This document shows, one piece after another, positions 1,864 to 24,490 of a stretch of 64,000 nucleotides of DNA. This DNA comes from Alphaproteobacteria bacterium (GTDB taxonomy: Bacteria; Pseudomonadota; Alphaproteobacteria; Bin95). The DNA lies in NCBI GenBank assembly GCA_965205265.1, contig CBDBGH010000003.1, positions 4,512,001-4,576,000 on the forward strand. The letters run 5' to 3'. The stretch's first letter is position 1, and every line of letters begins with the position of its first letter. Both the position numbers and the translations under genes were made by a program. The notes under the pieces were generated by a model. That model searched no databases, was not told the DNA's origin, and saw only the letters and a program-made list of their open reading frames with translations.

Positions 1864-3027
<1,164 letters not shown>

Positions 3028-3054
<27 letters not shown>

Positions 3055-3135
3055 GGCGTCGGCGCCTCGAACGACGACTGAGGCGACGACGCCTCGAACG
3101 ACGACTGAGGCGACGACGCCTCGAACGACGACTGA
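3028..3135 (+). repeat. Four tandem copies of a 27-bp unit equal to the last 9 codons of tuf, including TGA
   Basis: ggcgtcgtcgcctcaatcgacgactga / ggcgtcggcgcctcgaacgacgactga / ggcgacgacgcctcgaacgacgactga x2. Confidence 0.95.
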
Positions 3136-3171
3136 ACGGCGGAGGATCGACAGAACGCCATGGATCTCAGT

Positions 3172-3247
3172 AGGAGCATAGCTCAATTGGTAGAGCACCG
3201 GTCTCCAAAACCGGGGGTTGCGGGTTCGAGTCCTGCTGCTCCTGCCA
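3172..3247 (+). tRNA. tRNA-Trp (CCA)
   Basis: Acceptor AGGAGCA/TGCTCCT, anticodon arm CCGGT-CTCCAAA-ACCGG, CCA end; sits before secE. Confidence 0.97.
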
Positions 3248-19482: not shown

Positions 19483-19791
19483 ATGGATCACCAGAATATC
19501 CGCATACGCCTGAAGGCGTTCGACCACCGGGTTCTCGACCAGTCCACCGGCGAGATCGTGAGCACGGCGAAACGCACCGGCGCCCAGGTGCGCGGGCCGA
19601 TTCCGCTGCCCGTGCGCATCCAGCGCTACACCGTGCTGCGCGGCCCGCATATCGACAAGAAGAGCCGCGAGCAGTTCGAGATGCGCACCCATCGCCGGGT
19701 GCTCGATATCGTCGATCCGACGCCGCAGACCGTGGACGCGCTGATGAAGCTCGATCTCGCGGCCGGCGTCGATGTCGAGATCAAGGTCTGA
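19483..19791 (+). CDS. rpsJ: 30S ribosomal protein S10
   Basis: [28 protein letters not shown]. Confidence 0.99.
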
Positions 19792-19807
19792 GGGAGGCTC
19801 GGGGTCG

Positions 19808-20527
19808 ATGCGAACCGGCGTCATTGCCCGCAAGCTCGGCATGATGCGCATGTTTGCGGAAACGGGCGCGCATGTACCGGTCACGGTGTTGTCGCTCGAC
19901 CGCTGCCGCGTGGTCGCGCAGCGCCGCGAGGAGCCGGACGGCTATACGGCGCTGCAGCTCGGCGCCGGTATGGCGCGCACCAAGCGGATCACGCGCCCGA
20001 TGCGCGGCCATTTCGCCAAGGCGAAGGTCGAGCCGGCGAGGCGGCTCGCCGAGTTCCGGGTTTCGGAAGACGCGCTGGTCGAGGTGGGCGCGGAGCTTTC
20101 CGCCGGCCATTTCGTCAAGGGCCAGCATGTCGATGTCTCGGGCACGAGTATCGGCAAGGGCTTCGCCGGGGCGATGAAGCGGCACAATTTCCGCGGCCTC
20201 CGGGCCTCGCACGGCGTCTCCATCTCGCACCGTTCGCACGGCTCCACCGGCAACAGCCAGAATCCGGGCAAGGTCTGGAAAGGCAAGAAGATGGCCGGCC
20301 GTATGGGCGATGCGCGGGCCACGGTGCAGAATCTGGAAGTGGTCGATACCGATGTCGAGCGCGGCCTCATCATGGTGAAGGGCGCGGTGCCGGGTGCGAA
20401 AGGCGGCTGGGTGCTGGTGTCCGATGCGCGCAAGCGCAAGCTGCCGGAGGACGCGCCGTTCCCGGCCGGCCTCAAGGCGCCGGAAGAGGCGGAAGCCGAA
20501 GCGCCGGCCGGCGAGAACGGGGAGTAG
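19808..20527 (+). CDS. rplC: 50S ribosomal protein L3
   Basis: [32 protein letters not shown]. Confidence 0.98.
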
Positions 20528-22329: not shown

Positions 22330-22608
22330 ATGTCGCGTTCGGTTTGGAAAGGCCCCTTCGTGGACGGCTATCTGCTCAGGAAGGCCGAGGCGGTGCGCGG
22401 CTCGGGCCGCAAGGAGGTGATCCGCACCTGGTCGCGGCGGTCCACGATCCTGCCGCAATTCGTCGGGCTCACCTTCGGCGTCCATAACGGGCAGAAATTC
22501 CTGCCGGTCCTGGTGACCGAAGACATGGTCGGACACAAATTCGGCGAGTTCGCGCCGACCCGCACCTTCTACGGGCATGCGGCGGACAAGAAGGCGAGGC
22601 GGGGCTGA
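22330..22608 (+). CDS. rpsS: 30S ribosomal protein S19
   Basis: [29 protein letters not shown]. Confidence 0.99.
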
Positions 22609-22612
22609 GGCG

Positions 22613-23173
22613 ATGGGCAAACCGAAGGCAGAACCCCGCCTGGCCGAGAACGAGGCGCTGGCCTACGTGAAATATATCCGCACCAGCCCGCGCAAGCTCA
22701 ACCTGGTCGCGCAGAGCATTCGCGGCCTGAGCGTCGAAGCGGCGCTCGATACGCTCGCCTTCTCGAAGAAGCGCGTGGCGGAGGATGTCCGCAAGGCCGT
22801 GCAGTCGGCGGTCGCGAATGCGGAGAACAACCACGAGCTCGACATCGACCGGCTGGTGGTGGCCGAGGCGACGGTCGGACGGACAATCGTGATGAAGCGC
22901 ATGCGGCCCCGCGCCAGGGGCCGGGTCGGGCGGCTGGAGAAGCCGTTCAGCAATCTCCGCGTCGTGGTGCGGGAACTGCCCGACGAGGACGACCTTTTCG
23001 TCCTGGACGACGAGGATGAGGCGGCCGTCGCCGACGACGGGGATGAAGTTGCCGTCGCCGACGACGGGGATGAAGTTGCCGTCGCCGACGACGGGGATGA
23101 AGTTGCCGTCGCCGACGACGGGGATGAAGTTGCCGTCGCCGACGACGGGGATGCGGTCGAGGAGCGCGTGTGA
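22613..23173 (+). CDS. rplV: 50S ribosomal protein L22 with a 65-aa acidic repeat tail
   Basis: [26 protein letters not shown] core; then AVADDGDEV repeats; stop overlaps the rpsC ATG. Confidence 0.97.
23024..23153 (+). repeat. In-frame 27-bp VNTR: 4 perfect copies plus a 22-nt partial copy
   Basis: Unit gccgtcgccgacgacggggatgaagtt starting at 23024, 23051, 23078, 23105 and (partial) 23132. Confidence 0.97.
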
Positions 23174-23856
23174 TGGGCCATAAAGTCAACCCGATCGGGC
23201 TCCGGCTCGGCATCAACCGGACCTGGAACTCGCGCTGGTATGCGGACCGCGACTATGGCGACCTGCTGCACGAGGATCTGCAGATCCGCGACTTCCTGGA
23301 GAAGCGGCTCCAGAATGCGGGCCTTTCCAAGATCGTCATCGAGCGCCCGGCGAAGAAGGCGCGCGTCACTATCCACACGGCCCGCCCGGGCGTGGTGATC
23401 GGCAAGAAGGGCGCCGATATCGAGCGGCTGCGCACGGCGCTCGGCAAGATGACCAACAGCGATGTCAACCTCAACATCGTCGAGATCCGCAAGCCCGAGA
23501 TCGACGCGCGGCTGGTGGCCGACAATATCGCCCAGCAGCTCGAGCGCCGCGTCGCGTTCCGCCGCGCGATGAAGCGGGCGGTGCAGTCGGCGATGCGGCT
23601 CGGCGCGCTCGGCATCCGCATCAATGTGGGCGGGCGCCTCGGCGGCGCGGAGATTGCGCGCACCGAATGGTACCGCGAGGGCCGGGTGCCGCTGCACACG
23701 CTCCGGGCCGATATCGACTATGGCGAGGCGACCGCGAACACGACCTACGGCTCCTGCGGGGTGAAGGTCTGGGTGTTCAAGGGCGAGATCATGGCGCACG
23801 ACCCGATGGCGCAGGACAAGCGGCTGGCCGAAGAGCGCGCCGCGATGGGCCGCTGA
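23173..23856 (+). CDS. rpsC: 30S ribosomal protein S3
   Basis: [36 protein letters not shown]. Confidence 0.99.
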
Positions 23857-23868
23857 GGAGGCGGGGCT

Positions 23869-24282
23869 ATGCTGCAACCGAGGCGCACGAAATACCGCAA
23901 GCGGCAGAAGGGGCGCATCCACGGCATGGCGAAGGGCGGCACGGCGCTGACTTTCGGCAGCTACGGCCTCAAGGCCGCTGCGCCGGCCAGGATTACCGCC
24001 CGGCAGATCGAGGCGGCCCGGCGCACGATCACCCGCCGGATGCGCCGCGCGGGCAAGGTGTGGATCCGCATCTTCCCGGATGTGCCGGTCTCGACCAAGC
24101 CGGCCGAGGTGCGCATGGGCAAGGGCAAGGGCTCGCCGGAATACTGGGTGGCGAAGGTCAAGCCCGGACGGATCATGTTCGAGCTCGACGGCGTGCCCGA
24201 GACCGTGGCCCGCGACGCCTTCGCGCTCGCTTCCGCGAAACTGCCGATTGCGACCCGTGTGGTCGTCCGCGACGGGATCTGA
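23869..24282 (+). CDS. rplP: 50S ribosomal protein L16
   Basis: [16 protein letters not shown]. Confidence 0.99.
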
Positions 24283-24286
24283 GGCC

Positions 24287-24490
24287 ATGAAGGCGATCGA
24301 TGTGCGCGCACGCACCGCCGACGAGCTGTCGGAGCTTCTGGAGGACCTCCAGAAGGCAGCCTTCAACCTGCGCTTCCAGAGAGCGTCGGGCCAGCTCGAA
24401 AACACTGCCGAGATACGCAAGGTGCGCCGGGACATCGCCAGGATCAAGACGATCCTCGGCGAGAAGAGCCGCGCGGCGGCCGGGGCCTGA
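24287..24490 (+). CDS. rpmC: 50S ribosomal protein L29
   Basis: [14 protein letters not shown]...[10 protein letters not shown]. Confidence 0.97.

Follow-up and report, generated by a model that had tools for sequence, protein, structure and literature searches.

Few proteins are as constrained as ribosomal proteins, and the extensions that these carry are usually basic and bind RNA. Within rplV, the gene of uL22, small tandem duplications and deletions alter macrolide susceptibility; these are located in the tunnel β-hairpin inside the domain, which corresponds to about residues 92–111 of the protein described here. Flexible acidic tails are known as docking elements for partners, examples being the C-terminal DDDIPF tip of SSB and the tails of the ribosomal stalk P-proteins.

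Extensions of uL22 itself have been described in particular lineages. The available text of PMC10085706 reports a solvent-directed C-terminal extension of 43 aa in C. acnes and a disordered extension in M. smegmatis, and mentions mutations in the C-terminal region of uL22. In chloroplasts of the Caryophyllales, the extension of uL22c forms a surface domain adjoining the exit tunnel, according to the available text of bioRxiv 10.64898/2026.07.03.736309. Published work places the globular part of uL22 on the ribosome surface and makes uL22 part of the PDF site. A separate body of work concerns the in-frame coding VNTRs of bacteria, whose copy number changes by strand slippage and which are used in MLVA typing. 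For S. agalactiae, the available text of PMC3163538 describes coding VNTRs that lie in ORFs, dnaJ and fbsA among them, and the sole ribosome-linked VNTR that it reports is intergenic, upstream of the S10 gene.

The locus described here, rplV of an uncultured alphaproteobacterium, resembles each of these systems in part. Like the uL22 extensions of C. acnes, M. smegmatis and the Caryophyllales, it has an extra segment after the L22 domain, present in one lineage and expected on the solvent side near the exit. Unlike them, its tail is strongly acidic (46% D/E, net charge −29), modular and of different length in sister species, and it is inserted before a retained ancestral C-terminus, without a match to solved chains. 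Like bacterial in-frame coding VNTRs, the repeat runs head to tail with a period divisible by three; its copies are identical, and their number is not the same in close relatives. It departs from the VNTRs in the available S. agalactiae text in that the array lies inside a core ribosomal protein gene and its variation is seen between close relatives. As with the macrolide-related changes in rplV, in-frame length changes are tolerated by the ribosome; however, the array starts 11 codons past the end of the domain and is not expected to contact the tunnel. The start of the tail, PDEDDLF, recalls the SSB tip and the stalk P-protein tails in having an acidic run followed by hydrophobic residues within a disordered segment, a resemblance of composition only, but unlike the SSB C-terminal tip it is internal. 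Lineage-specific uL22 extensions and coding VNTRs are thus each known, whereas their combination with strong acidity in a core ribosomal protein was not found described: a search of open-access papers and bioRxiv, a scope that leaves subscription journals outside, returned no account of an L22 tail that is acidic or varies by repeats.

The rplV gene and its acidic tail

The window, the whole 64,000-nt stretch of DNA that was analysed, lies on a 5.46-Mb contig of a genome of 5.70 Mb in three contigs with 66–68% G+C. On its forward strand the genes for S19 (22330–22608), L22, S3 (23173–23856) and L16 (23869–24282) follow one another as read from ORF translations, and the order rpsS-rplV-rpsC is that of the S10 operon, the position expected for uL22. 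Profile libraries were applied to L22, and the names of S19, S3 and L16 come from reading of the translations. The features of the locus are as follows.

22613..23173, + strand: rplV (uL22), 186 aa and stop, from translation, Pfam and TIGR01044
22661..22972, + strand: L22 domain, aa 17–120, Pfam PF00237 (Ribosomal_L22), profile positions 1–104 of 104
22976..23170, + strand: acidic C-terminal tail, aa 122–186; 65 aa with 30 D/E and one R, net charge −29
22979..22999, + strand: motif PDEDDLF, aa 123–129, at the start of the tail, conserved across the genus
23006..23032, + strand: older diverged unit DDEDEAAVA, the first TRF copy, common to the 150-aa congeners (codon comparison with L002, L003 and L007)
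23024..23153, + strand: perfect 27-bp periodicity over 130 bp, four identical units of GCCGTCGCCGACGACGGGGATGAAGTT and 22 bases of a fifth (script and TRF)
23025..23148, no strand assigned: 16-nt quasi-palindrome CCGTCGCCGACGACGG, present once in each unit and thus in five copies (inverted repeats I1–I10, 88% complementary)
23156..23170, + strand: ancestral C-terminal pentapeptide VEERV; other Alphaproteobacteria end in ...VRE-VEERA, REERV or VEESA
23159..23164, + strand: GAGGAG, the likely rpsC Shine-Dalgarno sequence by sequence and spacing, 8 nt before the rpsC ATG
23173..23856, + strand: rpsC (uS3), from the ORF list; its start shares one base with the rplV stop (TGATG)

The frame at 22613–23170 encodes 186 aa without an internal stop. 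Its protein belongs to the bacterial uL22 family by both profiles, matching PF00237 with an E-value of 9.2e-36 (122.6 bits against a cut-off of 28) and TIGR01044 rplV_bact with 96.5 bits (cut-off 73.65). It is the sole L22 match in the genome, which is 98.98% complete. There is no tail-less L22 paralogue, so the tailed copy is the working copy, and rplV is the single, functional uL22 gene of this bacterium. Two minus-strand ORFs overlie the array (22663–24447, 594 aa; 22947–23216, 89 aa) and were taken as antisense artefacts of a 68% G+C genome. Elsewhere in the window, the ORF read as L3 (rplC, 19772–20527, 251 aa) has an N-terminal stretch of 12 residues and a mildly acidic C-terminal end rich in Pro, Ala and Glu, which may reflect a further extension specific to the lineage or a start codon placed too far upstream.

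The tail begins at L122 (CTG at 22976) and consists of 16 residues, four copies of AVADDGDEV and a further 13 residues. The original prediction had counted 30 Asp/Glu and one basic residue in these 65 amino acids by hand, and a recount gives identical numbers, the one K/R of the tail being R185. The core of the protein has a net charge of +11 (pI 10.71) and the tail −29, which leaves the whole L22 at −18 (pI 4.44). For comparison, the 141-aa L22 of the congener L011 has a net charge of +2 and that of one tail-less relative +9. The shift from +2 in a 141-aa form to −18 in the 186-aa form might alter the behaviour of the protein in assembly.

Conservation within the tail is uneven. At its start, P123, D124, E125 and D126 are invariant in all 17 genomes of the genus, L128 is kept in 16 and F129 in 15. 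The codons of the four invariant residues vary (CCC/CCG/CCT, GAC/GAT, GAG/GAA), and because these residues are fixed while their codons vary synonymously, the comparison shows selection on the peptide itself at the start of the tail, PDEDDLF. Sequence in the middle varies freely among the genomes of the genus, acidity aside, and peptide-level selection is visible at the start alone.

The far end of the tail is constrained in another manner. The two GAG codons of VEERV are without synonymous variants in all 17 genomes, unlike other codons of the tail, and the string GAG GAG CG(T/C) GTG TGA TGG is essentially fixed in the DNA of the genus. GAGGAG likely serves as the Shine-Dalgarno sequence of rpsC. 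The rplV stop (TGA, 23171–23173) and the rpsC start (ATG, 23173–23175) have one base in common, and TGATGG is found at all 17 loci; the overlap of the two genes, which had been described as preserved from the window alone, is thus kept throughout the genus. Since L22 proteins of relatives end in VEERA or REERV and those of the genus end in ...AVEERV, sequence comparison indicates that the acidic segment is an insertion between the end of the L22 domain and the ancestral VEERV and not a simple C-terminal addition. The extension would have arisen upstream of VEERV because the codons of this pentapeptide contain both the ribosome-binding site of rpsC and its TGATG coupling.

An AlphaFold2 model built with an alignment of 41 sequences predicts that the tail is disordered. 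Block-mean pLDDT is 69–88 over residues 21–90 and falls below 50 in the hairpin at 92–111, as expected off the ribosome. In the tail, 10-residue blocks have mean pLDDT values of 48–61, and the sole secondary structure is a four-residue helix at residues 125–128. Among 56 distinct PDB chains matched at E ≤1e-10, none aligns past query residue 129. No homology to the actinobacterial-type uL22 extension was found, including in comparison with extension-bearing PDB chains of 152–197 aa. By analogy with solved ribosomes, the tail should hang into solvent beside the tunnel exit.

The 27-bp array and its copy number

TRF reports a period of 27 with 5.5 copies, 96% matches and no indels at 23006–23153, with the units head to tail and in frame as in a coding VNTR. 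The four full units are the same at all 27 bases, which bears out the claim that the copies are identical even at silent sites, and perfect periodicity holds exactly over the range given for it, 23024–23153. The original prediction had the tail built by this VNTR, and as worded this is not supported: 36 of the 65 residues come from the repeat, not the whole tail, and an acidic tail of 20–30 aa is present genus-wide and predates it.

An array of this kind is rare in the genome. Of 85 non-overlapping TRF arrays scoring at least 80, only eight have at least four copies at 95% matches or more; the rplV array has the longest period among these, the others having periods of 7, 7, 7, 8, 9, 21 and 21. 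It is far beyond chance. When the 27-bp unit was sought elsewhere in the genome none was found, and all five matches at up to four mismatches lie at the rplV locus. As the unit is unique to this locus, a mobile or dispersed repeat was ruled out. Several arrays elsewhere in the genome, at C3:3251249–3252494, 3411557–3412320, 4049571–4050006 and 5447070–5450142, and others, have conserved repeats of ~32–37 nt with variable spacers in the TRF output, GTCGCCCCCCGCGCGGGGGGCGCGGATTGAAAC being one example. All lie outside the window, and they resemble CRISPR arrays with repeats of more than one type.

Each unit contains one copy of the quasi-palindrome CCGTCGCCGACGACGG (23025–40, 23052–67, 23079–94, 23106–21 and 23133–48), and every copy is able to pair with itself or with any other copy. 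The quasi-palindrome owes its existence to the reverse complementarity of the codons Val GTC and Asp GAC. Folded as DNA, two units reach −15.4 kcal/mol (z −2.82), and the RNA of 22976–23190 folds at −105.8 kcal/mol against −87.45 ± 4.07 for shuffled sequences (z −4.51, with 0 of 200 shuffles as good). A GC-rich quasi-palindrome of this type would favour slippage, and hairpin-assisted slipped-strand mispairing is the obvious candidate route for changes in unit number.

These folds could also be taken to mean that the element acts as RNA or DNA, with hairpins formed by the palindromic units at the rplV-rpsC junction adjusting the stability of the mRNA or its translational coupling, the peptide being a by-product. 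The strength of the RNA fold, the quasi-palindrome in every unit and the second 27-bp array of hairpin units directly after the tuf stop are all consistent with such an element. However, a strong fold at this locus follows trivially from a repeating palindrome, all 17 genomes retain the reading frame, and residues stay the same at positions with variable codons. In a consensus fold from 16 congeners, the covariation term is −0.17 kcal/mol and one pair in 23 is compensatory, and on these figures a conserved RNA structure at the junction was rejected. A role at the nucleic acid level is accordingly regarded as very improbable.

The second array, at 3036–3135 of the window, has a period of 27 bp, 3.7 copies and 94% matches. 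It begins in the last codons of tuf (EF-Tu, 1864–3054) and precedes the tRNA-Trp gene (3172–3247). Each of its copies repeats the 3' end of tuf with the TGA stop, together with a GAGGCG...CGCCTC hairpin. Because every copy includes TGA the EF-Tu protein is unchanged, and three extra stop-plus-hairpin units follow the gene.

The number of units in the rplV array was compared with public sequencing data. The stretch is present in whole or in part in 23 of 24 listed public runs from 12 studies, which include sponge and marine metagenomes according to the run labels; in the RNA runs X15–X20, 17–45% of its sampled words are present. Runs X1, X4, X7 and X8 were compared as Logan contigs at k=31, a word length too short to resolve a 27-bp array of perfect copies. 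In X1 and X4, from two studies, the contigs end at 23052/23053 and resume at 23124. These are the points at which a k=31 de Bruijn graph has to branch given two or more identical GAAGTT junctions. Repeat-only contigs of X4 have depths of 6 and 8 against 2 in the flank, which fits three to four copies of the junction, and the depths in X1 are inconsistent (flanks 1307 and 157, repeat pieces 2250–3167) and were left out of account.

Other runs hold shorter forms. An X8 contig of depth 69 and 98% identity to the window (13 differences in 635 bases) is unbroken and has 81 bases, or three units, fewer, which corresponds to a 159-aa protein. X7 has two low-depth contigs (2.66 and 2.7) with the same unit type as the window, corresponding to 159- and 150-aa forms. 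Contigs ~98–99% identical to the window thus carry three or four fewer units of its unit type. This is taken as variation among very close relatives, whose distance from the window is about that of the sister species.

These shorter contigs could be read as a sign that the 5.5 copies are an assembly artefact and that the real gene resembles those of its relatives in having one or two units. The unit count rests on the assembly and on k=31 contigs, not on raw spanning reads, and the contamination of the bin is 7.28%. Weighing against an artefact, the array lies on a 5.46-Mb contig of a three-contig assembly that was probably made from long reads, the X1 and X4 graphs break exactly where at least two identical junctions require it, and repeat words in X4 have three to four times the depth of the flank. 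In addition, the exact 186-aa protein is on record from two contigs, although these may be one assembly filed twice. Taken together, a miscounted array is hardly credible as an account of the locus.

Gain and loss of units in the genus

L22 was sought in 41 genomes, the window's own and 40 relatives, and found in 38, including all 16 other species of the genus. Within the genus its length is 141 aa in four genomes, 142 in four, 143 in one, 150 in six, 151 in one and 186 in the window's genome. All 17 genomes have an in-frame acidic tail, of 20–30 aa in the others and 65 aa here, with 35–53% D/E and one or two basic residues (K, R and H counted). This agrees with the expectation that relatives would conserve frame and charge. 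The family- and class-level relatives in the loci compared have an L22 of 126–133 aa without the tail.

A wider comparison added 80 further alphaproteobacterial loci, giving 110 loci and 102 distinct L22 proteins. Most of these proteins (83 of 102) have 4–14 residues past the domain. Outside the genus only two of the 102 have long tails, both non-acidic. One, from MAG contig JAQUYN010000027.1 (L050), is a Lys-rich tail of 41 aa with 14 K/R, and the other, from CAVZAL010000006.1 (L049), is an Arg/Ser-rich tail of 47 aa that looks like a frameshift or assembly error. The original prediction described L22 extensions of mycobacteria and Helicobacter as mostly Lys/Ala-rich, and extensions that are not acidic are indeed present in other lineages, as in the L050 tail and the solvent-exposed 43-aa extension of C. 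acnes. In a neighbouring L22 lineage at ~73–75% identity, proteins P0014, P0019 and P0021 (137–138 aa) have a different, shorter acidic tail ending in ...DDIGYDDDEGGIRDGA. On this comparison, acidic ends of L22 may have had at least two origins in this part of the class.

Acidity of this degree is not a general property of the proteome. Stop-to-stop frames of at least 80 aa that contain a 30-aa window with at least 15 D/E number only 24 genome-wide, and rplV is the sole one inside the window. A general acidification of the proteome or of the ribosomal proteins was ruled out on these counts. Other acidic coding repeats of the genome are long Gly-Asp dipeptide repeats (GDGDGD...) at C3:4173288–4173673 and C3:3631830–3631969, which are arrays of 42 bp × 9 and 12 bp × 11.7, respectively.

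A module of 9 aa has repeatedly come and gone in the genus, which produces the length classes. In a DNA alignment of the 16 congeners, a clean indel of 24–27 nt separates the forms of 141–143 aa from those of 150–151 aa. L22 forms of 149, 159, 160 and 170 aa come in addition from metagenome proteins. In P0003 the additional units are almost the same as one another, and those of P0002, P0004, P0005, P0135 and P0136 have diverged. The 90% cluster that holds the window's L22 has 78 members, and the 15 listed are of 141 (two), 142 (two), 150 (ten) and 186 aa (one). The length classes between species, the metagenome proteins and the contigs of the public runs all agree that unit number varies among close relatives, as had been proposed from the array.

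A maximum-likelihood tree was made from 3.35 kb of operon DNA on either side of the tail, which was itself excluded, for 17 genus rows and three family outgroups, all of which were kept. On this tree 150- and 141-aa forms are sisters twice, as L008/L013 (SH-aLRT 100) and as L006/L011 (94). Because such sister pairs recur on a tree of flanking DNA, the number of units has changed several times independently. The window's genome (G000, 186 aa) has G014 (150 aa) as its sister, at a support of 99 and with branch lengths of 0.008 and 0.013. With four identical units here and a sister species of 150 aa at ~2% divergence of the flanking operon, the expansion is recent, as had been suspected from the silent sites. 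Sequence comparison places the gain of about four identical units after the split from the 150-aa sister species, and so indicates that it is younger than the ~2% divergence of the conserved operon. Elsewhere, tails with two or three diverged units (P0002, P0004, P0135 and P0136) have lasted long enough for their units to diverge, which fits selection as well as tolerance.

Tolerance and selection at the exit site

The most probable account of these data is a genus-specific, disordered acidic linker near the exit, of which the start is constrained and the unit number drifts by tolerated slippage. Under this account, an acidic segment of ~15 aa, for which disorder is predicted, would have been inserted in the genus between the globular domain of L22 and VEERV. 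The pentapeptide would have had to stay, its codons holding the rpsC ribosome-binding site and the TGATG coupling. A module of 9 aa and 27 bp, consisting of an acidic run and then V/L/A, V and A, would then be gained and lost by replication slippage, aided by the GC-rich quasi-palindrome in each unit. The expected outcome is proteins of 141 + 9n aa across the genus, and in the window's genome one unit would have expanded from one to four identical copies very recently. Changes in length would be tolerated if the tail projects into solvent from the uL22 globular domain beside the exit. Selection would act on the PDEDDLF start and on overall acidity, not on unit number. The slippage mechanism, the solvent exposure, which is drawn by analogy with solved ribosomes, and the near-neutrality of unit number are the steps of this account that we infer.

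It has also to be considered whether the number of units is itself adaptive. The acidic arm would then be a selected, tunable polyanionic tether at the tunnel exit whose length sets its interaction with positively charged partners. Candidate partners are PDF's C-terminal helix, in the uL22/bL32 groove, other factors at the exit site, and free basic L22 before assembly, for which the arm would be a built-in chaperone. As candidate functions of the arm, the original prediction named a chaperone or rRNA mimic for L22, a cation sink, and a modulator of exit-site factors. Several observations point in this direction: the peptide-level conservation of PDEDDLF, with P123–D126 invariant in all 17 genomes despite synonymous changes; the retention of acidity in all 17 tails; the persistence of diverged two- and three-unit tails; the lack of a general trend in the proteome; and the contribution of uL22 to the PDF site in published work. 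However, sister species differ in the number of units without a visible pattern, and the middle of the tail varies freely. No fold is predicted for it, and the family-level relatives in which L22 was found lack the tail. An adaptive unit number is thus unlikely.

A more specific version is an electrostatic arm at the exit under selection, in which PDEDDLF docks with or competes with a basic factor such as the PDF helix, or shields the basic L22 hairpin before assembly, while slippage-prone modules retune reach and charge. We consider this quite doubtful. If true, it would be a mechanism like that of a contingency locus inside a core ribosomal protein.

Returning to the linker with a constrained start and a drifting number of units, the locus bears on what a ribosomal protein can accommodate. 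A whole genus tolerates a polyanionic uL22 tail and conserves its N-terminal motif. The tail converts a very basic ribosomal protein (core pI 10.7) to an acidic one (pI 4.4), in length steps of 9 aa that separate sister species. The locus also indicates that a downstream start that overlaps, here the likely Shine-Dalgarno sequence and TGATG, can compel an extension to emerge inside the protein and not at its C-terminus. If the tail is merely tolerated, it points out a place on the bacterial 50S surface that accommodates large, disordered acidic insertions without harm, which would be useful for ribosome tagging, and the repeat could be a strain marker for these symbionts. If it is functional, it would be a rare case of rapidly tunable ribosome heterogeneity at the exit site.
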